A stretch of DNA of 54,512 nucleotides from Candidatus Sericytochromatia bacterium (lineage in GTDB: Bacteria > Cyanobacteriota > Sericytochromatia > S15B-MN24 > UBA4093), in NCBI GenBank assembly GCA_036676495.1, contig JAKFCT010000037.1, positions 1-54,512 of the forward strand, read 5' to 3'. Numbering within the stretch: the first letter of the stretch is position 1; each line of letters opens with the position of its first letter. A program made the position numbers and the translations under genes. Positions 15,449-47,863 of the stretch are shown in pieces. The notes under the pieces were generated by a model that made no database searches, was not told the origin of the DNA, and saw nothing but the letters and a program-made list of their open reading frames with translations.

Positions 15449-15817
15449 CTAGGGGGCGCCACCGCCAGACTGATCGGGGCCCGGGGGCGTGCCCTGCTCG
15501 TTGCCGCCCATGCCGGGCGAGGGCGTCGCCATGCCGCCTCCGCCACCACCACGGGTGCCCGGGCTGGGGCTGGCCATGGTGCCCCCACCGCCGCCACCAC
15601 GGGTGCCCGGGCTGGGGCTGGCCATGGTGCCCCCACCGCCGCCACCTCCGGTGCCCGGGCTGGGGCTGGCCATGGTGCCACCACCGCCGCCACCTCCGGT
15701 GCCGCCGGGTTCGCGCTGCTCCATGCCGCCGCCGCCGCCCTCCTCGGCCGGTTGGCAACCGACCATCAGCGCTCCGAGCGACAGGGCCATCATCAAGACG
15801 ACTCCGCGTTTCAGCAT
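15449..15817 (-). CDS. Gly/Pro-rich low-complexity lipoprotein
   Basis: Lipobox LMVGC; three GGGGGG(G)TMASPSPGT repeats. Confidence 0.7.
   Translation of the reverse strand: MLKRGVVLMMALSLGALMVGCQPAEEGGGGGMEQREPGGTGGGGGGGTMASPSPGTGGGGGGGTMASPSPGTRGGGGGGTMASPSPGTRGGGGGGMATPSPGMGGNEQGTPPGPDQSGGGAP
15554..15703. repeat. 48-bp tandem repeat x3 inside lipoprotein gene
   Basis: Units begin 15554, 15602, 15650 (ggtgcccgggctggggctggccatggtgcc...). Confidence 0.9.
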
Positions 15818-17861: not shown

Positions 17862-19424
17862 ATGTCCCGACCCCCCCTCTTGCGCGCCCTATCCTTGATC
17901 GTCTCCGGCGGGCTCGCCTTGGGCGCCTTACCCGCACGGGCCGGAACCACCACCCACATTCCGCAGGGAAGCAGCCAGTACACGCAGATTGAATTGCGAA
18001 CCGTCGCGACGACCCAGAGCGAGGACGTCCCCGGGGCCAAGCAACTCACGAAAGCGACGCCGTCCACCACGGAGGTGATCACCGGGCCGACCACCAAGCT
18101 CATCCAGGACTGGGAGACCCGCGACTACCAGGTTCAGGTGACGAACTACCCACTGCGGCGCGAGGAGAAGAGCGAGGTGGCGGTCACCAAGAACGACTTT
18201 ATCAACCGCTACACCTATGAGGTCCCCGACAAGACCTGGAAGACATGGGCCTTCGGTGGCCCCACCACTACCGGCATGGACGTTCGATCGCTCCCTGAGT
18301 ATTACGTCCCTACTTTCCCCAAGGTCTATGGCGGAGGGGGCTATACCCCTCACGGGATCACGGAGTACGATGCCGAACGCTGGGCGATGACCCAAAGCAT
18401 CCTTGTCATGGTCTCCCCGAGCGGCTGGGATAGCAATCATCTCAGGGCATACCTCTGGTTTACCAAAGACCTCAAGTTCCTCGGGGGATACTTCAATGAC
18501 GGGCATGGAGGCACGAGTATCGGGACGGCGAGGATCATACGATACTGGGATCACGACGCCGTCGAGTACCACATGAACTGCACCCTCAATGATGATTGGT
18601 GGCGGTGGCAACCCGCGTGCGGCACCAACGGGACCGTCACCTATCATCTGACGGGAAGACTCCTCGAAGAGAAGACGTATACCTCCATGCGAACCGAGAC
18701 GAAAGATACGCCCTACAGCACCTTCGAAAAGATTTACGGCCCCTGGGAGCCCACTGGACGCATGGTGCGCGACGGTCGACGGAGCACGGTGCGCACCATA
18801 ACGGCCTCGGAGAAGGTGCTGGTCAGCCAGCGCACCGTTCCTCACAATCCCGGCGCCGCCAGGACGCTCGCTGTCGGCACGGCCGACCCGCGCCGCGCCT
18901 TCACGTCGGATTCGAGTTCCGGGAAGAGCAGTGCCTCCCTGAGCGGTAGCAAAGTTCGCAAGACCCTCGGCGCCAACCGCGTCACGGCCTCCCGCGTCGC
19001 GGGATCCAGCCAAGGATCCGGTGCACCCCGCCAAGGCAACGGAAACGGTCAGGGGGTCGGAGCGGGTCTCAGCCAGCTTATCCCGACTCCCAAGCCGACC
19101 CCGACCGCGACTCCCAAGCCGACCCCGACCGCAACTCCCAAGCCGGCCCCGACCGCGACTCCCAAACCGGTCCCGACTGCAACTCCCAAACCGGTCCCGA
19201 CCGCGACGCCCACGCCGATGCCGACGCCGAGCCCCGTGCCCACGAGGAAACCCCGTCAAAACGATACCGGCGGGCAACGCGGCCACCTGCCTTTCCTCCC
19301 GTGGGCGCAGGCGCTCGCAGCGGTCAACAAGGCCCCGCTCATCGACACCTGGTGGTTCCCCCGAAATCCCCAGCAGCCCCCGATGCGGGTGACCTACGAC
19401 TCCTACCGCATCCCCTCTCCCTAG
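17862..19424 (+). CDS. Secreted hypothetical protein with Pro/Thr repeat linker
   Basis: AAAGGAGG SD; signal peptide ending ARA; (TPKPTPTA)n near C-terminus. Confidence 0.75.
   Translation: MSRPPLLRALSLIVSGGLALGALPARAGTTTHIPQGSSQYTQIELRTVATTQSEDVPGAKQLTKATPSTTEVITGPTTKLIQDWETRDYQVQVTNYPLRREEKSEVAVTKNDFINRYTYEVPDKTWKTWAFGGPTTTGMDVRSLPEYYVPTFPKVYGGGGYTPHGITEYDAERWAMTQSILVMVSPSGWDSNHLRAYLWFTKDLKFLGGYFNDGHGGTSIGTARIIRYWDHDAVEYHMNCTLNDDWWRWQPACGTNGTVTYHLTGRLLEEKTYTSMRTETKDTPYSTFEKIYGPWEPTGRMVRDGRRSTVRTITASEKVLVSQRTVPHNPGAARTLAVGTADPRRAFTSDSSSGKSSASLSGSKVRKTLGANRVTASRVAGSSQGSGAPRQGNGNGQGVGAGLSQLIPTPKPTPTATPKPTPTATPKPAPTATPKPVPTATPKPVPTATPTPMPTPSPVPTRKPRQNDTGGQRGHLPFLPWAQALAAVNKAPLIDTWWFPRNPQQPPMRVTYDSYRIPSP
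19082..19240. repeat. 24-bp tandem repeat encoding TPKP(T/A/V)PTA
   Basis: actcccaagccgaccccgaccgc(g/a) about 5 copies then degenerate. Confidence 0.85.
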
Positions 19425-19447
19425 AGCGAGAAACGTTGCTACAGGTC

Positions 19448-19500
19448 AGCCAAAAGACTGCCGGGGGCCCGCAATGCGGGCCCCCGGCAGTCTTTTGGCT
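19448..19500. terminator. Bidirectional terminator, 25-bp perfect stem
   Basis: agccaaaagactgccgggggcccgc-aat-gcgggcccccggcagtcttttggct. Confidence 0.9.
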
Positions 19501-19506
19501 GGAAGG

Positions 19507-21353: not shown

Positions 21354-21379
21354 GCCCCCATTCTATCACCTTCCTTGCT

Positions 21380-21451
21380 TTGTCCCCCCTTGCTCACGCA
21401 ATGCGCAACTGCGCCCGCAGGCGCAAGGGGGGACAATTAGAGGAAGATTAG
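21380..21451. repeat. Solo/degenerate end of the palindromic element family (copy C)
   Basis: ttgtccccccttgc...gcaaggggggacaa hairpin; caaggggggacaattagaggaagatt identical to 30374-30399. Confidence 0.8.
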
Positions 21452-23496: not shown

Positions 23497-23739
23497 CGCT
23501 CCCTCTCCAAGGATCATCCCGAGGCGCCATGGGCCTCTCTCTCTCTATCCGCCCGTCCCGGCCCGGACTTGGTAAGCGGGACTTTAAGGCTTCGCTAAGC
23601 TTTGGCCTCTCGGGCGGGGCCGAGGAGAAAATGGCGACTCCGCCCGGGAATAACGCGCGAATTATCCTTGCTTGCCGGGTACGATCTCCTAGGCTTCCAC
23701 TTTCGCCCCGCAAAATCGACCCTCTGAGGAGCCTTTTCC

Positions 23740-25338
23740 ATGCCGACTCCACGAACGCTGGCTGCACGCACCCTCCTCCTGCTCCTGGGCATCAGCCTCG
23801 TGGTCGCTTGCGACGCGACCCCGTTCGACGTGGGCAATCAGGCCCCCAGGTCCAGCACGGCGCAGGCGCGCGGGATCCGGGGCACGGTCCTCGACACGAC
23901 GGGCGCTCCCGCCGGGGGAGTCGTGGTCCGCGGCACGCTCATCAGCAACAACGCCGGGGGGCTCATCAGCAACAACGGAGGCGGCCTCATCAGCAACAAC
24001 GCCGGGGGCCTCATCAGCAACGGCTCGGGGCTCTACCGCACCCAGAGCGGAGGCTTCGAGACCAAGACCGCATCGGACGGCTCGTTCTCCTTCAACACCT
24101 CGGACGATCAGGTCCTCACCCTCGAAGCCATCCAGCGCGAGAACATCAAGGCCATCCAGCTGGGAGCCGGGGCCTCCAGCGAGCCCTTCACCCTGCGGCT
24201 CGCTCCCACGGGCCATATCCGGGGCAAGGTCGTTCCCGCGGACGCCGCCGTCACCGATCTCCTCAACATCGACGTCTTCATCCCCGGCACCTCCTACGTC
24301 GCCAAGACGGACGCCCAAGGGAACTTCACCCTCTCGAACGTGCCTCAGGGTCGCTTCACCCTGGTGGCCGACCACCGGGATCTGGGGCGCGCCGTCCTCA
24401 ACGGCCTGACGGTCGTCTCGGGCGAGACCGCCACGCCTCCCGCCCTGGCGCTCAGCACGCGCACGCCCGTGCTGACGTCCCTGGCGCCTGCAAACGGCGC
24501 TCCGGGCGCACTCGTCACCCTGAAGGGAGAGCACTTCGGCGTCTCCTCCGGCAAGCGGCCCGACGTCTACTTCAACGGCCTCGCCGCGCAGATCGTCTCG
24601 GCCTCGGAAACCCAGATCACGGCCACGGTTCCTTTGGGAGCCATCTCCGGGACGATCCGGGTCTCGGTGAGCGGGCTCGAATCCGCCACCCTGCCCTTCC
24701 GGGTCCTGCGCAGCCTCGCGCTCTTCCCCGATTACCAGGAAGCCGATTTCCAGGATCCGACGGCCCAGCCGCCAGCCTCCGACGTGATCGCGCTCGGCGC
24801 CACGCGCAGCTACCGCGTCAGGGCCTTCGACACCGAGGGCCGCCCCATCAGCGCTCCCGCCGTCTCCTGGAGCACGCTCGGAACCGTCGCCTCCGAACTC
24901 TCCAACGGCGAGTTCAAGCCCCTGGCTCCGGGCCGCCTGGCGATCGCCGCCATCTCCGGCAGCGTGAGCACCCCCCCGCTCGCCATCGAGATCCTCTCCG
25001 CCATCACCCGCGTGGACGTCCTCCCCAACCCGCTCAAGCCGCTCAACCCCCCGCCCCTCATCCCCGTGCCGGAGGCCGAGCGCAGCCAGATCCCCGACTG
25101 GGTCCAGCTCCAGCCCAAGGTGGTCCTGGACACCCACGAAACCCGCGAGATCCCCTTCCGCTACGAGTCGCTCCACCCGGATCTCACGATCTCCCCGACC
25201 GGCCGGGTCACGGTCATGCCGGGAGCCGCCGACGGCTCGCCCTCGGTCAAGCTCATCCCGATCGCCAATCCGGCCAAGTTCCGGGTGCTGGAGATTCCCG
25301 TGCAGCAGCAGGGCGATCTCAGCTTCGTCATCCAGTAG
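23740..25338 (+). CDS. Lipoprotein with carboxypeptidase-regulatory-like domains, LISNN repeats and IPT/TIG domain
   Basis: Lipobox VVAC; IRGTVLD, KTDAQGNFTLSNVPQG, VTLKGEHFG; C-terminal GDLSFVIQ. Confidence 0.8.
   Translation: MPTPRTLAARTLLLLLGISLVVACDATPFDVGNQAPRSSTAQARGIRGTVLDTTGAPAGGVVVRGTLISNNAGGLISNNGGGLISNNAGGLISNGSGLYRTQSGGFETKTASDGSFSFNTSDDQVLTLEAIQRENIKAIQLGAGASSEPFTLRLAPTGHIRGKVVPADAAVTDLLNIDVFIPGTSYVAKTDAQGNFTLSNVPQGRFTLVADHRDLGRAVLNGLTVVSGETATPPALALSTRTPVLTSLAPANGAPGALVTLKGEHFGVSSGKRPDVYFNGLAAQIVSASETQITATVPLGAISGTIRVSVSGLESATLPFRVLRSLALFPDYQEADFQDPTAQPPASDVIALGATRSYRVRAFDTEGRPISAPAVSWSTLGTVASELSNGEFKPLAPGRLAIAAISGSVSTPPLAIEILSAITRVDVLPNPLKPLNPPPLIPVPEAERSQIPDWVQLQPKVVLDTHETREIPFRYESLHPDLTISPTGRVTVMPGAADGSPSVKLIPIANPAKFRVLEIPVQQQGDLSFVIQ
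23938..24030 (+). repeat. 24-bp tandem repeat encoding LISNN(A/G)GG x3 plus LISNGSG
   Basis: ctcatcagcaacaac repeated at 24-nt spacing. Confidence 0.9.
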
Positions 25339-25347
25339 GAGACCGCC

Positions 25348-27570
25348 ATGCGTCACTTTCGCCTCATCACCCTGAGCCTGGCCTTCACCCTCCTGGGCTG
25401 CCAAGTGCCCCTGAACCTCCCCCATGCGATCACTCCCGCCACGCAAGGCCCGGACGGAAGCGCCATGGGCCCCGAGGACGAGGCCGCCCCGCGCATGGGA
25501 ACCCTCCGCTTCGCCATCCGCTGGCCCGAGCGCGACCTTCCCGGCTTCTCGGCCCAGGTGATCCCCCTCAGCACCGAGACGATCGTCTTCGAACTCTGGA
25601 AACCCGGCGACACGACCGATCAGCCGCCCCTGGAAAGCCAGACCATCCGGCGCACGACGGGAAGCGCCATCTCCAGCACCACCCTCAGCCTGCCGGTCGG
25701 AACCGGGTACACGGCCCGCGCCCGGGCCTACGACGCCGCGGGCAACGAGATCGCCAGCGCCGTCAAGCCGGGCTGCGAGGTCGTCTGGGGCAAGTCCTCG
25801 GCCGTCGCCATCACCCTCGGGGCCGCCTTCGCTCCCCAGATCACGGGCCTTCACGTCAAGGACGGCTTGCTCACCCAGGCCCATGGCACCCCCGGCCAGG
25901 CCCTGACGATCACCGGGATCAACCTCGATCGTGCCCCCAACCCCATCGTCATCTTCCCCTCGGGCGTCGAGGCCGCGGCCACTTATCACGCCCCGGAACT
26001 CACCGTCACCATCCCCCCCGGGGCCGGCTCGGGCGACCTGCACCTCAAGGTGGACGGCGTCAAAAGCGAAAACGGAGCGCCGTTCCAGGAAGTGCGAAGC
26101 CTCGAACTCAGTGCCGACGGCGAAGGCCAGGGCGGAGAGCGCGACGGAGACGGCGCCATCGCCACATGGCTGGGCGATTCCTTCCCGATCCGGATCACGG
26201 GCACGGATACGGCCGGAATGGACGTCGCAAAGCCCGCCGTGACGGGATGGAACCTCCCCGGAGACGGCGTCGGAGAGATGCTGGCCGGCGACGTCTACCA
26301 GGCCCTCAAGCTGGGCAAGAGCACGCTGACCGTCCGCATGCACGAGCTTTCGAGCTCGCGCGCGATCGTCGTCGCCCCCCCGGCAGGCACCATCCACCGG
26401 CCCGCCGACTTCGTCCAGGGCCTCACCGATCACAGCCTGACCCCCATCGGCGAGAACTGGCTCGTCGCCTGGCATGATCCCGCCCGCTCGAAGGTCTACT
26501 GGCGCCTCATCGACAAGAACGGCCTCCCGCAGGGAGCCGCCCACGAGACCACCGCCATCGGCAGCGGAGCCGAGCGCGCCGTCCGCGTCGCCGCGGTTCC
26601 CGCCCATCCCGATCCCGCCGATCCCGGCAAGACCGTTCCCGCCACCGCCTTCCTCGCCTACCGCGCCGTGATCGGGAACCGCAACATGGTCGTCTTCCAG
26701 CCCCTCGATCCTCTCACCGGGGCCGAGCGCGGCGGCGGCAAGGCGCTCGTCTTCGATACCGCCTACGACTCCGACGGCCTCGTCGACCTGGTCGCCAACG
26801 ACGAGGGGTACGCGCTCGCCATGCAGCGCTTCACCGGCACGCATTACGTCCAGATGCTCCACACCTTCCGCTACCGCCCCGAGACCCCGACCGCGTCGGA
26901 GTCCTACCCCTTGTCCAAGACCCGCACGTACACCCGGGGCGCAGGCAACGAGTTCATGTACTACCCTCCCTCGGAAGACACCTTCTCGGTGGCCCCGAGC
27001 GGCAAGCAGTTCGTCGTCGCCCGCCACTTCGGCACCAGCGGCGGAGCCGGGCCCACCGCCCTCGAGATCGAGCACATGAACCTCGATCTGACGGCCGTGA
27101 AACCCGCGAAGGCCTTCCTCCACGATCGAAACCGCGTCGTCTCCGTCGCCACCGACGGCAATCTCATCCTCGCAGCCGCCATGGAGGTCCTGCCCTCGGG
27201 AACGATCATCAAGCTCTACCGCTACGACATGAACCTCGATCAGCAAAACATGGGAGAGACCATCGCCACGCTGGGCATCGCCGGGAGCGATCCCGTGAAC
27301 TGGCCGCTGAAGCTCGTCTGGGACGGCACGCAGTTCCTCTTGAGCTATGCCCGGCAGGTCGGGACCCTCGAGGAGGGCCAGCTCGTCCAGCGGCCTCAGG
27401 CCATGATCCAGGCGATCAACAAGGACGGCACGCTGAGCGGGCCCGCCTATCCCATGGCCAAGGTCAGCCAGGTCCCGGCCCTCTTCCCGACCGCGGAAGG
27501 CGGCATGGCCCTCTGGCTGGACTCCGCCCGCGCGCTGCACATGCGCCGGATGAAGTTCCGCAAGCCCTAG
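25348..27570 (+). CDS. Lipoprotein with IPT/TIG domain and probable C-terminal beta-propeller-like domain
   Basis: Lipobox LLGC; GTLRFAIRWP; LTITGINL; repeated strand motifs (WLVAW, LVWDGTQFLLSY, GGMALW). Confidence 0.75.
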   Translation: MRHFRLITLSLAFTLLGCQVPLNLPHAITPATQGPDGSAMGPEDEAAPRMGTLRFAIRWPERDLPGFSAQVIPLSTETIVFELWKPGDTTDQPPLESQTIRRTTGSAISSTTLSLPVGTGYTARARAYDAAGNEIASAVKPGCEVVWGKSSAVAITLGAAFAPQITGLHVKDGLLTQAHGTPGQALTITGINLDRAPNPIVIFPSGVEAAATYHAPELTVTIPPGAGSGDLHLKVDGVKSENGAPFQEVRSLELSADGEGQGGERDGDGAIATWLGDSFPIRITGTDTAGMDVAKPAVTGWNLPGDGVGEMLAGDVYQALKLGKSTLTVRMHELSSSRAIVVAPPAGTIHRPADFVQGLTDHSLTPIGENWLVAWHDPARSKVYWRLIDKNGLPQGAAHETTAIGSGAERAVRVAAVPAHPDPADPGKTVPATAFLAYRAVIGNRNMVVFQPLDPLTGAERGGGKALVFDTAYDSDGLVDLVANDEGYALAMQRFTGTHYVQMLHTFRYRPETPTASESYPLSKTRTYTRGAGNEFMYYPPSEDTFSVAPSGKQFVVARHFGTSGGAGPTALEIEHMNLDLTAVKPAKAFLHDRNRVVSVATDGNLILAAAMEVLPSGTIIKLYRYDMNLDQQNMGETIATLGIAGSDPVNWPLKLVWDGTQFLLSYARQVGTLEEGQLVQRPQAMIQAINKDGTLSGPAYPMAKVSQVPALFPTAEGGMALWLDSARALHMRRMKFRKP

Positions 27571-27573
27571 ACC

Positions 27574-28491
27574 ATGCTTCCGCTCGTCATCCATCCCGAG
27601 GTCCGCGAAGCCCTGGACTCCGGGAAGGCCGTGGTGGCCCTGGAATCCACCCTCATCACGCACGGCATGCCCTATCCCCAGAATGCCTCCACCGCCCTCG
27701 CCGTGGAGGCCCTGATCCGGGAGGCGGGCGCCGTCCCCGCCACGATCGCCGTCCTCGACGGCCGGATCACGGTCGGGCTCGAGCGCGCGCAGATCGAGGC
27801 CCTGGCCCGGCGGAAGGACGCGGTGAAGTGCAGCCGGCGGGACCTTCCGGTCATCGTCGCCAAGGGCCTGACCGGGGCCACCACGGTCGCCGGCACCATG
27901 ATCGTGGCCGCCATGGCCGGCATCCGGATCTTCGTCACCGGCGGGATCGGAGGCGTGCACCGCGGCGCCGCTCAGACCATGGACGTCTCGGCGGATCTCG
28001 TCGAGCTCGCCAGGACCTCGGTGGCGGTCGTCTGCGCCGGGGCAAAGTCCATCCTCGACCTGGGCCTCACCCTGGAGGTCCTGGAAACACAAGGCGTCCC
28101 GGTGATCGGCTACGGCACGGATCGCTTCCCGGCCTTCTACGTCCGGGACTCGGGCTTCGACGTGCCCCACCGGGCCGATAGCGCCGAGGAAGTGGCCGCG
28201 ATCCTCGCGTGCAAGTGGTCGCTAGGGCTGGAAGGCGGGGTCGTGATCGCCAACCCCATCCCCGACGCGCATGCCCTCCCAGCCGAGGCCATCGAGGCGG
28301 CCATCCAGGAAGCCCTGCGGGAGGCCGATGCCCGCGGGATCTGCGGCAAGGACGTCACTCCCTTCCTCCTGGGGCGGCTCGGGACGATCACCGAGGGCCG
28401 GAGCCTGGAGGCGAACATCGCCCTGCTCAAGGCGAACGCCTCGGCCGGCGCGGCGATCGCCAACGCCCACGCCCGCAAGCGCCAGATTTAA
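27574..28491 (+). CDS. psuG: Pseudouridine-5'-phosphate glycosidase
   Basis: VVALESTLITHGMPYP, KCSRRDL, TGGIGGVHRG, SADL, GKDVTPFLL. Confidence 0.96.
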   Translation: MLPLVIHPEVREALDSGKAVVALESTLITHGMPYPQNASTALAVEALIREAGAVPATIAVLDGRITVGLERAQIEALARRKDAVKCSRRDLPVIVAKGLTGATTVAGTMIVAAMAGIRIFVTGGIGGVHRGAAQTMDVSADLVELARTSVAVVCAGAKSILDLGLTLEVLETQGVPVIGYGTDRFPAFYVRDSGFDVPHRADSAEEVAAILACKWSLGLEGGVVIANPIPDAHALPAEAIEAAIQEALREADARGICGKDVTPFLLGRLGTITEGRSLEANIALLKANASAGAAIANAHARKRQI

Positions 28492-29898: not shown

Positions 29899-30228
29899 TC
29901 ACCACTTCTTGAAGACGAAGAAGACCGCCAGCATGATGCAGGCGAAGCCCGCCAGGTAGTTCCAGCGCAGCTCTTCCTTGAGGAAGGTCACCGAGAAGAC
30001 GCAGAAGACCACCAGGGTGATGGCCTCCTGCATGGTCTTGAGCTGCGCGGCCGTGAACTGCCCATGGCCGATCCGGTTGGCGGGCACCATCAGCATGTAT
30101 TCGAACAGGGCAATGCCCCAGCTGACCAGGATCACGGTCAGCAGCGGCAGGTGCTTGTACTTCAGGTGCCCGTACCACGCGAACGTCATGAAGACGTTCG
30201 AAAGCAGGAGCAGGATCAGGGTTTGCAT
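29899..30228 (-). CDS. DMT family small membrane protein (DUF486)
   Basis: SNVFMTFAWYGHLK, WGIALFEY, PANRIG, QLK.MQE. Confidence 0.9.
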   Translation of the reverse strand: MQTLILLLLSNVFMTFAWYGHLKYKHLPLLTVILVSWGIALFEYMLMVPANRIGHGQFTAAQLKTMQEAITLVVFCVFSVTFLKEELRWNYLAGFACIMLAVFFVFKKW

Positions 30229-30229
30229 C

Positions 30230-30401
30230 TAATCTTCCCTATCTTGCCCCCCTCGACGGGGGGGCGGGGCGAAGCCCCGGGGGGTGTTTGCCGGCGAAGC
30301 CATGGTGTTCCTCGTTATTAGGAACCTGGGAGCAGTAACACCCCCCTGCCGGCTACGCCGGCCGTCCCCCCGTCAAGGGGGGACAATTAGAGGAAGATTT
30401 A
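30230..30401 (-). mobile_element. Gene-less MITE/REPIN-like copy (B) of the DUF559 element
   Basis: Reverse complement aligns with both arms at 46212-46290 and 46665-46750; terminal ATCTTCC/GGAAGAT inverted repeats flanked by TA. Confidence 0.85.
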
Positions 30402-31802
30402 GGGGTGCTCGTGCCTCAGGTGCAGCAGCAGCTCGTCGGTATCCGTCAGGACGATCTCGGTGAGCTGCGGCGCCAACCCGATGTACCCGGCCGGAGTCAG
30501 GGCTAACAGGCGATCGCGAGTCTCGGCATCGACGTCGAGGCCCCGCACGAAGGCATGCAGGGACTCCAAGGTCACCTGCTGACCCCGGGTCAGCGCCGAC
30601 AGCGCCTCGTAAGGCATGGCGTAGCCCTTGGAGCGAAGCACGGTCTGGTAGGCCTCGGCCAGCACCTCGGGATGCGCGTCGAGATCGGCGCGCATGCGCG
30701 CGGCGTCCGGATCCAGGCGGCGGATCCCCTGGACCGTGCTCTTGTAGGCCAGGAGCGCGTGGCCGAAGGCGACGCCCAGGTTGCGCAGGACGGTCGAGTC
30801 GGAGAGATCGCGCTGCAAGCGGCTCTTGGTCAGCTTCTCGCCGAAGAAGACGAAGAGGGCGTTGGCCAGGCCGAGGTTGCCCTCGGAGTTCTCGAAGTCG
30901 ATGGGGTTGACCTTGTGGGGCATGGCCGAGGAGCCGATCTCGCCCGCGACGGGCTTCTGGCGGAAGTAGCCGTCCGAGACGTAGCGCCACATGTCCTGAT
31001 CGAAGTCGAGCAGGACGTGGTTGAGGCGCCGGAAGTGGTCGCAAAGAGCCGCCAGGCGGTCATGGGGCTCGATCTGGGTGGTGACGAGGTTGGGGATCAG
31101 GTCCAGGCGGCGGATCACTTGCTCGGAGAAGGCGATCCAGTCGGCGTCGGGATAGGCGATCGCCAGCGCCCCGAAGGTGCCGGTGGCGCCGTTGAGCTTG
31201 CCCGTCAGCTGGAAGCGATGGAGGGCCCTGAGCTCAGGCAGGAGACGATGCGCGAAGACGGCCATCTCCTTGCCGAGCGTGGTGGGAGTGGCGCTCTGGC
31301 CGTGGGTCCGCGAGAGCATCGGGACGGTCTTGTTGCGGGCGGCGAGGTCGCGCACGGCCTGCAGCACGTCGAGCAGGGCCGGCAGCATGACGTCGCGGGT
31401 GGCGTCGCGCAGCATGCACGCGTAGGCGAGGTTGGAGACGTCCTCGGAGGTGAGGCCGAAGTGGACCAGCTCCACCTCGGAGGCCAGCCCCGGAATCTGG
31501 CGGATCCGCTCCTTGAGGTAGTATTCGACCGCCTTCATGTCGTGGTTGGTCTTGCGCTCGATCTGCTTGATCTCCTCGGCGTCGACCGCGTCGAACTCCT
31601 CGTAGAGCTTGCGCAGGCGGGCGAAGGCATCGGGGCCGAAGCGGTTCAGGTCCTGGTGGACCACCCCCAGGAGGGCCGTGAAGACCTCGACTTCGACCAT
31701 GACCCGGTAGCGGTTCAGCGCGAACTCCGAGAAATAGTCACCCAGGGGTTGAACCTTGGTGCGGTAACGTCCGTCGAGCGGGGAAATGGCAGTCAAACTC
31801 AT
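30399..31802 (-). CDS. purB: Adenylosuccinate lyase
   Basis: LTAISPLDGRY, TNHDMKAVEY, GSSAMPHKVNPIDFENSEGN, SRLQRDL. Confidence 0.98.
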   Translation of the reverse strand: MSLTAISPLDGRYRTKVQPLGDYFSEFALNRYRVMVEVEVFTALLGVVHQDLNRFGPDAFARLRKLYEEFDAVDAEEIKQIERKTNHDMKAVEYYLKERIRQIPGLASEVELVHFGLTSEDVSNLAYACMLRDATRDVMLPALLDVLQAVRDLAARNKTVPMLSRTHGQSATPTTLGKEMAVFAHRLLPELRALHRFQLTGKLNGATGTFGALAIAYPDADWIAFSEQVIRRLDLIPNLVTTQIEPHDRLAALCDHFRRLNHVLLDFDQDMWRYVSDGYFRQKPVAGEIGSSAMPHKVNPIDFENSEGNLGLANALFVFFGEKLTKSRLQRDLSDSTVLRNLGVAFGHALLAYKSTVQGIRRLDPDAARMRADLDAHPEVLAEAYQTVLRSKGYAMPYEALSALTRGQQVTLESLHAFVRGLDVDAETRDRLLALTPAGYIGLAPQLTEIVLTDTDELLLHLRHEHP

Positions 31803-34213: not shown

Positions 34214-34744
34214 TTACAGGATGGCCCGGACCGCTTCCGTCAACGTCTGGGCATCGATGGGCCCGATGTACTTCTCGACGATCCGACCCTCGCGATCCAC
34301 CAGGAACGAGGTCGGAATCCCCCGGATGCCTCCGTAGCTCTGGGTCACCGCTTGATTTCCCATCATCAGCGGATAGGAAATCGCGTACTCCTGGGCGAAG
34401 GGCACGACCACGCCCGGCCCCCCTTCGTCCAGCGAGATGCCGAGGATCTCGAAGCCCTGGTCGTGCAGGGAATTGCGAACCTGGTTGAAGGCCGGAATCT
34501 CTTCCTTGCACGGCGGGCACCAGGTCGCCCAGAAGTTGACCAGCACCACGTTCCCCTTGTACTCGGACAGGGAGATCGTTCCCTCCCCGCGGACGGCCGG
34601 CAGGGCGAAATCCGGAGCCATGGCCGCGTTGGCGGCCCCACCCGCCTGCCGGGAAGCGTTTCCGGGGAAGAAGAAGAACGTTGCCCCGGCCCCCAGCGCA
34701 ATCACGGCGAGCAGGGCCACGAGGATCCACTTGGTCTTTGACAT
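34214..34744 (-). CDS. TlpA/ResA family thiol-disulfide oxidoreductase (copy 1)
   Basis: N-terminal TM; APDF; NFWATWCPPC; GIPTSFLVD. Confidence 0.93.
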   Translation of the reverse strand: MSKTKWILVALLAVIALGAGATFFFFPGNASRQAGGAANAAMAPDFALPAVRGEGTISLSEYKGNVVLVNFWATWCPPCKEEIPAFNQVRNSLHDQGFEILGISLDEGGPGVVVPFAQEYAISYPLMMGNQAVTQSYGGIRGIPTSFLVDREGRIVEKYIGPIDAQTLTEAVRAIL

Positions 34745-40451: not shown

Positions 40452-40982
40452 TTAGAGGACGGCCTTGACGGCCTTCTCCAGGGTTTCCTCGCTGATCATG
40501 CCGACCCACTTCTGGGAGATCCGGCCGTCCCGGTCAATCAGGAAGGAGGTCGGAATCCCGCGGATTCCCCCGTAGCTCTTGGTCACGTCCCGGTTGCCCA
40601 GGACCAGGGGATACGAGATGCCGTACTCCTTGGCGAACGGAGCCACCACCTTCGCGCCGCCCTCGTCCATCGCGATGCCGATGATCTCGAAGCCCTTGGC
40701 GTTCAGGGAGTTGCGGACCTTGATAAAGTCGGGAATCTCCTCCCGGCACGGCGGGCACCAGGTCGCCCAGAAGTTCACGAGGACGACCTTGCCCTTGTAA
40801 TCCGAGAGCTTCAGCGACGAGCCCCCCGCCAAAGTGGGAAGGGTGAAGTCCGGGGCGCTGGGACCGGTCGCCGCGAAGGCCGCCTCGCCCTGCGAGAGCG
40901 GATTGCCCGAGAAGGTGAGGTACGCGGTGGTTCCCGCGGCGGCCACGAGCGCGGCCATGATCCATGCGGTCGGCTTTTTCAT
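40452..40982 (-). CDS. TlpA/ResA family thiol-disulfide oxidoreductase (copy 2)
   Basis: NFWATWCPPCREEIP; YGGIRGIPTSFLID. Confidence 0.93.
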   Translation of the reverse strand: MKKPTAWIMAALVAAAGTTAYLTFSGNPLSQGEAAFAATGPSAPDFTLPTLAGGSSLKLSDYKGKVVLVNFWATWCPPCREEIPDFIKVRNSLNAKGFEIIGIAMDEGGAKVVAPFAKEYGISYPLVLGNRDVTKSYGGIRGIPTSFLIDRDGRISQKWVGMISEETLEKAVKAVL

Positions 40983-45700: not shown

Positions 45701-46225
45701 ATGCTGAAGAAGCCCAACCCGTTCAAAGCCAAGCAGGAACTCGCCAAGGCCAAGCCCGCGGCTAAAGAAGAAGGAAACGTCATCGACCTGACGACGGCTC
45801 CTCCCCGCAGCCCCTTCGAGATGCTCAACGGCTACGTCTTCCTGCCCCGCCTCATCGACAAGGCCCGCGCCCACCTCAGCGAGAAACTGGGAAGCTACAC
45901 CTACGGCAAGCCCGGCAGCCTGGACGCCTTCTTCTTCACCCAGCACGGCCTCAGCGCCGACGAGTTCGCCAAGGCCGTCCGCGCCGCCGGATCCGACCAG
46001 GAGGTCGTGACCTGGTTCAGCATGCGGACCAAGATCAAGACCCCCAACGCCATCAAGGAATACAACCGGAAGTTCGCCTCGCTCGCCCCGTCGAGCGCCG
46101 AGTCGGTCAAGGCCTTCATGGTGCACGTGAAGCAGGTCGTGCCGCCGGAGCAGGCGGATCGGATCAAGACCTGGTTCCAGCTGCTGGACGCCGACGAAGG
46201 CCGCCTGGATCTGATCGTCCGCTAA
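45701..46225 (+). CDS. DUF5069-like protein
   Basis: DLT..PPRSP...L.GYVFLPRLIDKARA...LG.Y; TWF.LLDADEGR. Confidence 0.75.
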   Translation: MLKKPNPFKAKQELAKAKPAAKEEGNVIDLTTAPPRSPFEMLNGYVFLPRLIDKARAHLSEKLGSYTYGKPGSLDAFFFTQHGLSADEFAKAVRAAGSDQEVVTWFSMRTKIKTPNAIKEYNRKFASLAPSSAESVKAFMVHVKQVVPPEQADRIKTWFQLLDADEGRLDLIVR

Positions 46226-46750
46226 ATGTCCCCCCTCGATGGGGGGACCGGCGAAGCCGAGGGGGGTGTTACTGCTCCCAGGTTCCTTATGAAAGGAGGC
46301 CTCCCTTGCGCTTTCATCAAAGAACCAGCCGAAACACCACCAAGTTACGAAACACCATGACCGATGCCGAGCAAAAGCTCTGGTACTTCCTTCAACGCGA
46401 GAACCTGGGGTGCAAATTCCGGCGCCAGGTCCCCCTTGGTCGCTACATCGTGGACTTTGCATCCCTGGAGAACGGTCTCATCATCGAAGTGGATGGTGGG
46501 CAGCATGCCGGAAATACCCAGGATATGCAGAGGGATTCCTGGCTCCAGGAACAAGGCTACCGCGTGCTGAGATTCTGGAATCATGACGTGCTTCAGAATA
46601 CCGAAGGTGTCTTAACACGCATCCGAGAAACGCTACAGGGCCAGGAATAAGCTCACGCATTCGACAAGGAACGCCATGGCTGCGCCGGCTAACACCCCCC
46701 GGGGCTTCGCCCCGCCCCCCCATCGAGGGGGGGCAAGATAGGGAAGATTA
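46212..46750 (+). mobile_element. Palindromic-armed element (copy A) carrying a DUF559 nuclease gene
   Basis: Both arms match the gene-less copy at 30230-30401; ggggggtgtt/aacacccccc and gttcctt/aaggaac pair across the gene. Confidence 0.75.
46306..46650 (+). CDS. DUF559 / Vsr-like endonuclease domain protein
   Basis: AAAGGAGG SD then TTG; LR..MTDAE.KLW..L, KFRRQ, YIVDF, IIEVDGGQH, RD.WL...GY.VLRFWN; visibly more AT-rich than neighbours. Confidence 0.93.
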   Translation: MRFHQRTSRNTTKLRNTMTDAEQKLWYFLQRENLGCKFRRQVPLGRYIVDFASLENGLIIEVDGGQHAGNTQDMQRDSWLQEQGYRVLRFWNHDVLQNTEGVLTRIRETLQGQE

Positions 46751-47863
46751 GAAGGCCTTGGAGAACGGCCTCACCGATCCCCGATGCACCGAGAAGATCT
46801 CGGCGGCGTCGATCCAGTCGGCGGTGAAATCGCTGAGGTGCGTCGAGGTCACGAAGGTCTGAACCTCCCCCCCGATGGCCGCCAGAAGCGCGTTCTGGCG
46901 GCGGATGTCCAGCTCGGCCAGGACGTCGTCCAACAAGAGCAACGGCGACTCGCCGGACTCCTGGCGAAAGACGTCGAGCTCGGCGAGCTTCAAGGCCAGG
47001 ACCACCGTCCGCTGCTGGCCCTGAGAGGCGAAGGCCTTCGCCTCATGCCCGTCGATCGCCAGGTCCAAATCGTCCCGGTGCGGGCCGGCCAGGGTCTGCC
47101 CCCGCGCGATCTCCTTGCCCCTGCCTTCCTGCAGCTGCATGAGCAGCGATCGCTCCCAGTCCTCTCCCTCCAGCCGCTCCAGAGCCGGCAAGAGCCGCAT
47201 CGAGAGGGTCTCGTGCCCGGAGGAGATCTCCGCATGCCAGAAGCGCGCCCGCTCCGCGAGCGCCTCCACCAGCGCGCGCCGCTTGCGCCAGATCTCGGCG
47301 CCGTAGCGTGCCAGCTGCATGTCCCAGATCTCCAGGCTCTCCGGGGAAACTCCCTCGGAGATCGCCCGCAGCGCGTTGTTGCGCTGCAAGAGCACCCGCT
47401 GGTAGTTCTGGTGGGCCTGGTAATAGGTCGGAGAGAGCTGGACCAAGATGCCGTCCATGTAGCGCCGCCGATGCGCGGGCGAGCCCTTCACGAGCTGGAG
47501 ATCCTCCCCCGAGAAGAGCACGATCATGACCGTCCCCAGCAGGTCCGCGAAGCGGCGCTGGTAGATCCCGTTGATCCGGATGGCCCGCCGGCCGCCGGCG
47601 CGGAAGAGCAGATCCACGGCCGTCGTCCCCAGCTCGCGCTCCACCTCGCTCCGGATGATGGCCTGCTCGGTGTTCCAGCGGATCAGCTCCGCCTCCTTCG
47701 CGGCGAAGGGCGACTGGCCCGTGGCCAGGATCGCGATCGCCTCCAACAAGTTGGTCTTCCCCTGGGCGTTATCCCCGAGGAAGATCACCGATTGGCGATG
47801 GAACTGCACGTCGAGTTCCGCGTAGGATCGGAAGTTGCTGAGGTTTAGCGAACGTAGAAACAC
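46748..47863 (-). CDS. recF: DNA replication/repair protein RecF
   Basis: NFRSY, GDNAQGKTNLLEAI, GPHRDDL, SQGQQR, LLLDDVLAELD. Confidence 0.97.
   Translation of the reverse strand: MFLRSLNLSNFRSYAELDVQFHRQSVIFLGDNAQGKTNLLEAIAILATGQSPFAAKEAELIRWNTEQAIIRSEVERELGTTAVDLLFRAGGRRAIRINGIYQRRFADLLGTVMIVLFSGEDLQLVKGSPAHRRRYMDGILVQLSPTYYQAHQNYQRVLLQRNNALRAISEGVSPESLEIWDMQLARYGAEIWRKRRALVEALAERARFWHAEISSGHETLSMRLLPALERLEGEDWERSLLMQLQEGRGKEIARGQTLAGPHRDDLDLAIDGHEAKAFASQGQQRTVVLALKLAELDVFRQESGESPLLLLDDVLAELDIRRQNALLAAIGGEVQTFVTSTHLSDFTADWIDAAEIFSVHRGSVRPFSKAF

Follow-up and report, generated by a model that had tools for sequence, protein, structure and literature searches.

The window analyzed here, a 54,512-nucleotide contig from a Candidatus Sericytochromatia bacterium (contig C37 of assembly G000, which spans 4.14 Mb in 106 contigs at 66% GC and is 91.9% complete), holds a 172-bp near-perfect palindrome without a gene at positions 30230-30401, between purB and DMT_6 and in minus-strand orientation relative to a gene-bearing relative, copy A. 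The purB gene (30399-31802, minus strand) encodes adenylosuccinate lyase with Pfam Lyase_1 and ASL_C matches, and its C-terminus, ...HEHP*, is one residue longer than the ...HEH* of the two same-genus genomes, G001 and G002. DMT_6 (29899-30228, minus strand) encodes a 109-residue DUF486 membrane protein (Pfam DMT_6, E = 4e-47). Read on the minus strand from the end of purB through the element to the start of DMT_6, the sequence is ...CAC CCC TAA ATCTTCC...GGGAAGATTAG ATG CAA.... The purB stop codon TAA (30399-30401) is one end of the element and the DMT_6 ATG (30226-30228) lies 1 nt from the other, in agreement with the letters given in the original prediction.

The element is bounded by 16-nt terminal inverted repeats (AATCTTCCCTATCTTG / CAAGATAGGGAAGATT), and all of its parts are given here as minus-strand features. 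The outer terminus next to DMT_6 (30231-30246) is the reverse complement of CAAGATAGGGAAGATT, one of 29 such termini genome-wide, and carries an SD-like GGGAAG together with the TAG that abuts the DMT_6 ATG. Beside it lies an arm module (30246-30285) consisting of a C-run/G-run hairpin, the mini-hairpin GGGGCGAAGCCCC and a free G6 run, an arrangement resembling a triplex motif with its second loop enlarged. The central stem-loop GTTCCT-(7 nt)-AGGAAC (30307-30325) separates this module from a second one (30340-30385), which is built from a C6 run, the mini-hairpin GCCGGCTACGCCGGC and the 8-bp hairpin GTCCCCCC-GTCAA-GGGGGGAC (-17.5 kcal/mol, z = -4.2). The other outer terminus, AATTAGAGGAAGATT plus TA (30385-30401), gives purB its stop codon TAA. 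Folded as single-stranded DNA with Watson-Crick pairs only, a 181-nt stretch adopts one long hairpin at -60.4 kcal/mol, compared with -34.1 +/- 3.4 for 200 shuffles, none of which equals it (z = -7.78). No Rfam family matched the window at gathering thresholds, and a scan of 29900-30700 returned neither a promoter nor a terminator.

The reverse complement of the element aligns with the right arm of copy A at 93% over 89 nt (E = 4e-31) and with the left arm at 86% over 79 nt (E = 4e-16). The almost base-for-base match to both arms that had been proposed holds for the inner arms and the right terminus but does not extend to the outer left terminus (AATCTTCCTCTAATT), which copy A lacks. The accompanying proposal that the gene is replaced by a loop of about 7 nt is borne out, as the GTTCCT/AGGAAC stem closes a 7-nt loop at the very position where copy A has its DUF559 gene.

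The DMT_6 side of the element also contains a 24-codon mini-ORF (30229-30303, minus strand; MASPANTPRGFAPPPRRGGQDRED*), which starts at the conserved GAGGAAC-N4-ATG of inner-arm type B and ends with the TAG that adjoins the DMT_6 ATG. Throughout this genome a start-type codon follows the SD-like GAGGAAC in all 18 arm-B copies (13 ATG, 2 GTG and 3 TTG), opening mini-ORFs of 21-47+ codons that begin MA[AS]PANTP.... Five copies encode a 24-residue peptide of the same length and frame, a sixth 24-residue frame differs in sequence, and at C33:20301 the arm-B frame continues in frame into the downstream gene. The purB stop is not overlapped by any start. Judging from these reading frames, the supply of the purB stop by one terminus, together with the mini-ORF, may explain how an insert is tolerated inside a co-directional gene pair.

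Filled and empty sites

The occupancy of the purB-DMT_6 junction varies among relatives, in line with the original prediction of a real insertion: the element is present in G000 and absent from both G001 and G002 as well as from three environmental contigs. The environmental evidence comes from Logan contigs of soil and sediment runs, with the junction bridged in three of the four runs (X1, X3 and X4; none for X2). Four distinct empty alleles were recovered, namely CAC TAG CGGAAGATTCGTC TTG in G002 and identically in X1, CAT TGA GCGAGCGGGCCTGAGGCG ATG in G001, CAC TAG CGGAAAACCGGAAACCCC ATG in X3 and TAG GGCCGGCGAGAAGCG ATG in X4. Each has a spacer of 13-18 nt and none reads TAGATG, and the CCC TAG ATG empty site of the original prediction is contradicted by relatives whose intergenic sequence is a different one. 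The TA duplication proposed with it fares no better, as it could be reconstructed neither from these four alleles nor from three empty sites matching copies on contig C82, although the diverged spacers make this a weak test. The C82 copies (52712, 70695 and 79102) are all absent from G002 and two of them from G001; no target duplication was seen at these sites, where the empty spacers of 6-13 nt (stop codon to next gene) are too diverged to show one.

By sequence comparison, the element at purB-DMT_6 is either a lineage-specific gain or has been lost in every relative examined, and its absence from four different empty alleles indicates that it is dispensable there. The G002 spacer contains GGAAGATT, an octamer identical to one in the element terminus, which may be a remnant, a sign of target preference or an SD-like sequence common to both.

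The repeat family and its gene-bearing unit

Searches of this genome by blastn with the 172-bp copy, copy A and a short relative at 21365-21450 returned 29 merged loci, about 26 of them convincing. The DUF559 gene has a single tblastn match in the genome, and its interior has no other blastn match. The arms follow a common order of an 8-bp C-run/G-run hairpin, a mini-hairpin, a free G6 (or C6) run and an inner arm, the last of which occurs in two types, A (ACTGCTCCCAGG) and B (GCCATGGCTGCGCCGGCT). Most gene-less copies carry the outer 16-nt terminus, and the base following it is A (..TTA) for 19 of the 29 termini. Relative to the consensus, family copies other than the arms of copy A have identities of 69-98%. 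Every one of the 26 loci is located between predicted genes, with a spanning ORF absent at 24 and present at 2 by a crude ORF call. A predicted stop codon falls within -9 to +3 nt of an element end at 13 of the 26 loci (18 of 52 sides), and several element ends have a start codon no more than 11 nt away.

The short relative (21365-21450, plus strand) shares the C6/G6 hairpin and an identical 26-nt outer terminus with the family and holds a different 40-nt module in the hairpin loop, a composition that suggests a mosaic, nested construction. The 40-nt module recurs at C34:3745-3800 and C67:15628-15683. Across 41 genomes (this one and 40 relatives), a 173-nt query found 45 matches in G000, 43 in G001 and 9 in G002; outside the genus it gave only four weak matches, all in G005.

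Copy A (46223-46752, plus strand) consists of a left arm (46225-46290), a DUF559 ORF and a right arm (46664-46752), and a stop codon lies at either end, one belonging to a DUF5069 gene and the other to recF. As a domain of unknown function, DUF559 is very widespread. The gene at 46306-46650 (plus strand) is single-copy in the genome, begins with TTG after GAAAGGAGG and encodes a 114-residue Vsr-like PD-(D/E)XK nuclease, which matches Pfam DUF559 (PF04480) with E = 1.8e-37 and 128 bits against a cut-off of 20.6. Its closest solved structure is 3hrl_A from N. gonorrhoeae (E = 1.1e-24, residues 16-112), and E61, D63 and H67 are invariant among 11 DUF559 sequences. The two arms of copy A are close to the family consensus, at 95.5% (tied second of 21) and 93.3% (second of 18). 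Comparison of the gene with its G001 counterpart gave dN/dS = 0.087 with dS near saturation, and on this codon-level evidence the gene is under purifying selection. In the literature, Vsr, DUF559 and DUF2726 are grouped together with a group I intron homing endonuclease in one source (PMC3424549), and a DUF559 gene is placed in the EDxHD homing endonuclease family in another (PMC9403480). In a table of a third (PMC9881135), 'DUF559 domain-containing protein' shows 14-fold enrichment among predicted targets of programmed inversion, as one would expect if these genes lie within inverted repeats.

The DUF5069-recF site that contains copy A presents an allelic series. Arms and gene are both present in G000; in G001 the element is gene-less, measures about 150 nt and closes the same stem with a loop of 18 nt; in G002 there is only one arm. 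The recF stop lies in the terminus ...GAAGATTA in all three genomes, indicating that an element at this site predates the three species. Inspection of the 18-nt G001 loop for remnants of the DUF559 gene gave nothing convincing. G001 has a DUF559 homologue with 78% amino acid identity at a locus other than recF, in a unit laid out as hairpin-GGGGGGTGTT...GTTCCTTAT-AAAGGAGG-gene-ATAAGGAAC...AACACCCCCC-hairpin. This layout is that of copy A, the unit contains the canonical C7-TTGAT-G8-TA-G7, and no such element occupies the corresponding locus in G000 or G002. From this distribution, the gene-bearing unit appears to move, or to be gained and lost, within the genus. Of the outer termini found on gene-less copies, one or both are missing from the gene-bearing units in G000 and G001. 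No DUF559 match was found in the 85% complete G002 assembly, a weak negative since the PF04480 genome search is not fully sensitive and missed an E. coli control, ycjD, that RefSeq annotates as DUF559.

Other repeats were observed around the G001 unit and its counterpart loci. Three tandem copies of TTTCGCTCACGCTGC directly follow the right arm of the unit in G001 (L018 1905-1960). A different hairpin repeat (GATTCCCGC...GCGGGAATGACGG), accompanied by direct 26-nt repeats, occurs in G000 (C27:16180-16440) and G002 (C67:23850-24100), filling the intergenic space where G001 has its DUF559 unit.

DUF559 genes, their arms and known repeat systems

A profile built from 11 homologues retrieved 80 DUF559 loci from Proteobacteria, Chlamydiae, Omnitrophota, Elusimicrobia, Chloroflexi, Nitrospirota and other groups, among them a locus of Candidatus Sericytochromatia LC003 identical to that of a same-family relative, G003. 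For each gene the two 200-nt flanks were compared for their best inverted repeat, which could be scored at 76 loci, and the scores were set against those of 284 controls shifted by 700-900 nt. The flanking inverted repeat exceeded the control maximum (14.5) at 62 of the 76 loci, with medians of 24.5 for the loci and 9 for the controls, and the remaining 14 loci had no flanking repeat above control. Left arms across phyla share CCCTCTCCC-loop-GGGAGAGGG-TTA/CCG-GGGTGAGGG, and right arms carry its complement. When six genomes were each searched with their own element or gene-plus-arms query, the arms were multi-copy in all six and the full length with the gene was matched once. The match counts were 45 in G000, 44 in G001, 117 in G005, 50 in Pseudoxanthomonas mexicana, 86 in a Dehalococcoidia MAG and 15 in Neisseria oralis, and each gene is flanked by the repeat variant of its own genome.

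In E. coli, the 3' end of ycjD carries a degenerate C-rich hairpin, a full TMECO repeat follows about 170 nt downstream, and no arm was found upstream of the gene. E. coli K-12 also has a partial duplicate of the ycjD 3' end (ggagacggtgctggagaatattc...) between the gene and the full TMECO (L192 4205-4430). A search of the open-access literature turned up no publication that connects DUF559 or ycjD with these repeats, and RAYT, nuclease and triplex do not occur in RepRanger (PMC12306157).

TMECO, together with BoxC and PIT, belongs to the 'intrastrand triplex motif' repeats of Holder et al. (2015, PMC4666352). That paper describes these repeats as known in E. coli since the 1990s and as abundant in many phyla, including pathogens and cyanobacteria. 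E. coli MG1655 is given 23 TMECO, five of them as inverted pairs of type A and type B; the sites are always intergenic, with between-strain variability exceeding that of control sites; transposase or integrase remnants, or any mobility function, are said never to have been found near them; and PIT elements are stated, from earlier work, to have no promoter or terminator activity. The DUF559 arms of other phyla reproduce this motif, as given there, almost letter for letter. The 172-bp element shows the same order within a single strand, in which a C-run is followed by its complementary G-run and then by another G-run, and the three blocks of the motif (pyrimidine, complementary purine and mirroring purine) are present as C6-8 / G6-8 / G6 in both arms. 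The family is likewise intergenic, occurs singly or in inverted pairs, varies between close relatives and has counterparts in many phyla. The published rule of 1-6 nt loops is broken by the second loop, which is a 13-17 nt mini-hairpin in both the 172-bp element and copy A; the first loop is 5 nt, and the G001 gene-bearing copy, with TA in place of the mini-hairpin, obeys the rule. This genus differs further in adding inner arms, a central stem and 16-nt outer termini to reach 172 bp, and its arms bracket a nuclease gene, whereas the authors of that paper report finding no mobility function beside TMECO sites.

The organization of the family resembles that of the REPIN/RAYT systems, or REPtrons, as far as the cited accounts describe them (Bertels & Rainey 2011, PMC3116915; Nunvar 2010, PMC2817692; PMC5581495). 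The two share an inverted palindromic doublet in tens of gene-less copies and one flanked single-copy gene surrounded by the genome's own repeat variant. They differ in the enzyme, an IS200/IS605-like HUH Y1 transposase in those systems and a Vsr-like DUF559 PD-(D/E)XK nuclease here, and in that the gene-bearing unit occupies different loci in two congeners. A RAYT was considered as the partner here and rejected: G000 has a single partial Y1_Tnp match (C48:6110-6346, profile positions 37-120) with no family copy beside it, and no Y1_Tnp match was found in G005, with its 117 arm matches, or in G003. Orthologous-looking Y1_Tnp matches occur in G001, at full length, and in G002. The repeats described here are BoxC/triplex-motif repeats that are organized like REPINs but with a different enzyme, and that are elaborated in this genus.

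Candidate explanations: partner enzyme, homing gene, host element or MITE

Architecture, copy numbers, presence and absence among congeners, the cross-phylum linkage of gene and arms and purifying selection are matters of direct observation. Weighing them together, we give about an even chance to the proposition that this is a non-autonomous, REPIN-like palindromic family for which the DUF559 nuclease serves as partner enzyme in the place of a RAYT. The nuclease would recognize an arm folded into its hairpin plus G-run, in DNA that is single-stranded or extruded, and nick it, and host replication or repair would then copy or remove the nicked unit. At purB-DMT_6 the element would have entered or been rebuilt in this lineage, and it would be tolerated there through termini that supply the purB stop as well as the SD-like GGAAG and the stop-start junction for DMT_6.

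Several results argue for such a partnership. About 26 arm loci stand against one DUF559 gene in this genome, the arms of copy A are near the consensus, and the arms are multi-copy with the full unit present once in six of six genomes. The G001 unit has the same layout at a locus that is empty in G000 and G002, the recF site offers its series of gene-bearing, gene-less and half elements, and the dN/dS of 0.087 points the same way. So do the arms at 62 of 76 cross-phylum loci, the 3' hairpin and downstream TMECO of ycjD, and the 117 arm matches of G005 without a Y1_Tnp match, together with the distance of the G000 Y1_Tnp match from the family. Other results argue against it. A PD-(D/E)XK nuclease on its own represents incomplete transposition chemistry, no target-site duplication is established, and the gene-bearing units lack outer termini. 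G002 keeps 9-11 element matches without a DUF559 match (in an 85% complete assembly), the 69-98% identity of the G000 copies to the consensus gives no sign of recent activity, 14 of the 76 loci are without arms, and E. coli has 23 TMECO while ycjD has no upstream arm. Cleavage, binding or transposition by any DUF559 protein was not found in the literature examined.

The same linkage of gene and arms would also be expected if DUF559 were a selfish endonuclease gene of the homing type that recognizes repeats already present and inserts into their apical loop; the repeats would then spread by other means, and the 172-bp copy would represent an uninvaded target. We regard this as an unlikely though substantial alternative. 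The gene is always in the central loop, and at recF the arms predate three species while the gene is found there only in G000; the published assignment of a DUF559 gene to the EDxHD homing endonucleases (PMC9403480) and the grouping of Vsr and DUF559 with a group I intron homing endonuclease (PMC3424549), as far as those sources go, point in the same direction. A homing gene would, however, find tens of potential targets per genome, yet there is one full-length match in each of six genomes. The site of the G001 unit has no element in G000 or G002, so that arms and gene came or went together, and the spread of the repeats themselves would be left unexplained.

Two further explanations fit the data less well. 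It is improbable that the element is a host structural or regulatory feature (an mRNA 3'-end or intercistronic hairpin, a translational coupling device or a protein-binding site) kept by selection, with the DUF559 association incidental. The position of 26 of 26 loci between predicted genes, the stop codons near element ends at 13 of them (18 of 52 sides) and the start-type codon with SD-like GAGGAAC in 18 of 18 arm-B copies would suit such a role, as would a mini-ORF ending in TAG|ATG of DMT_6. Against it, four different empty alleles at the same junction show that the element is dispensable there, 29900-30700 contains no terminator-like or promoter-like site, PIT elements are described in the cited text as without promoter or terminator activity (PMC4666352), and an incidental association cannot account for 62 of 76 loci across phyla. 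The last explanation starts from the ends of the element and from its MITE-like description in the original prediction. The 16-nt terminal inverted repeats, the A that follows 19 of 29 termini (..TTA) and the plausibility of TA as a target in a 66% GC genome recall an ordinary MITE of a TA-targeting DDE transposon (IS630/Tc1-mariner type, Correia-like) mobilized in trans. MITEs with TA target duplication, such as Correia elements or IS630-derived MITEs, are 100-200 bp long and intergenic, with terminal inverted repeats, TA at both ends and termini touching genes, and the element has their size, inverted repeats, intergenic position, TA ends and gene-touching termini in common with them. It differs in that no TA duplication could be reconstructed from the empty alleles (a weak test with spacers so diverged) and in that no transposase partner with these termini was found: the 91.9% complete assembly has no pair of termini 0.5-3 kb apart that could enclose a transposase. 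As TA is self-complementary, it may equally belong to the inverted terminus, and we consider mobilization by a DDE transposon very improbable. Of the original label of a non-autonomous MITE/REPIN-like derivative, what is supported is a layout like that of the DUF559-bearing unit with the gene missing.

Extended beyond this genus, the partner-enzyme reading would make DUF559 proteins the missing partner enzymes of BoxC/PIT/triplex-motif repeats throughout bacteria, a second, HUH-independent class of REPtron-like systems, with the 172-bp compound element of this genus using its termini as gene-boundary adaptors (stop codon, SD-like site and relay mini-ORF); we hold this wider proposal tentatively, at somewhat less than an even chance. 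If the nuclease acts on the repeats, there would be a testable answer for both the BoxC/PIT/TM repeats and DUF559, and REP/RAYT would no longer be the only case known in which a dedicated single-copy enzyme accompanies a bacterial repeat family. The window contributes an allelic series within one genus, in which the element at one site occurs with the gene, without it and as a half element and five sites are seen both filled and empty, and an example of an insert between a stop and a start codon that leaves the operon unbroken.

Elsewhere in the window, further repeats were noted. Six tandem 24-nt units (ACTCCCAAGCCGACCCCGACCGCG) at 19062-19240 have a length that is a multiple of three and so may be a coding repeat, a 48-nt unit is repeated in tandem three times at 15532-15703, and four tandem copies of a 24-nt unit (23938-24042) lie within a 1493-residue ORF (23689-28170, minus strand). 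At 19447-19501 the halves of a perfect 27-nt inverted repeat (CAGCCAAAAGACTGCCGGGGGCCCGCA / complement) are separated by 1 nt, and a 300-nt direct repeat with 73% identity (34214-34513 and 40452-40751), its copies 6.2 kb apart, possibly represents paralogous genes.
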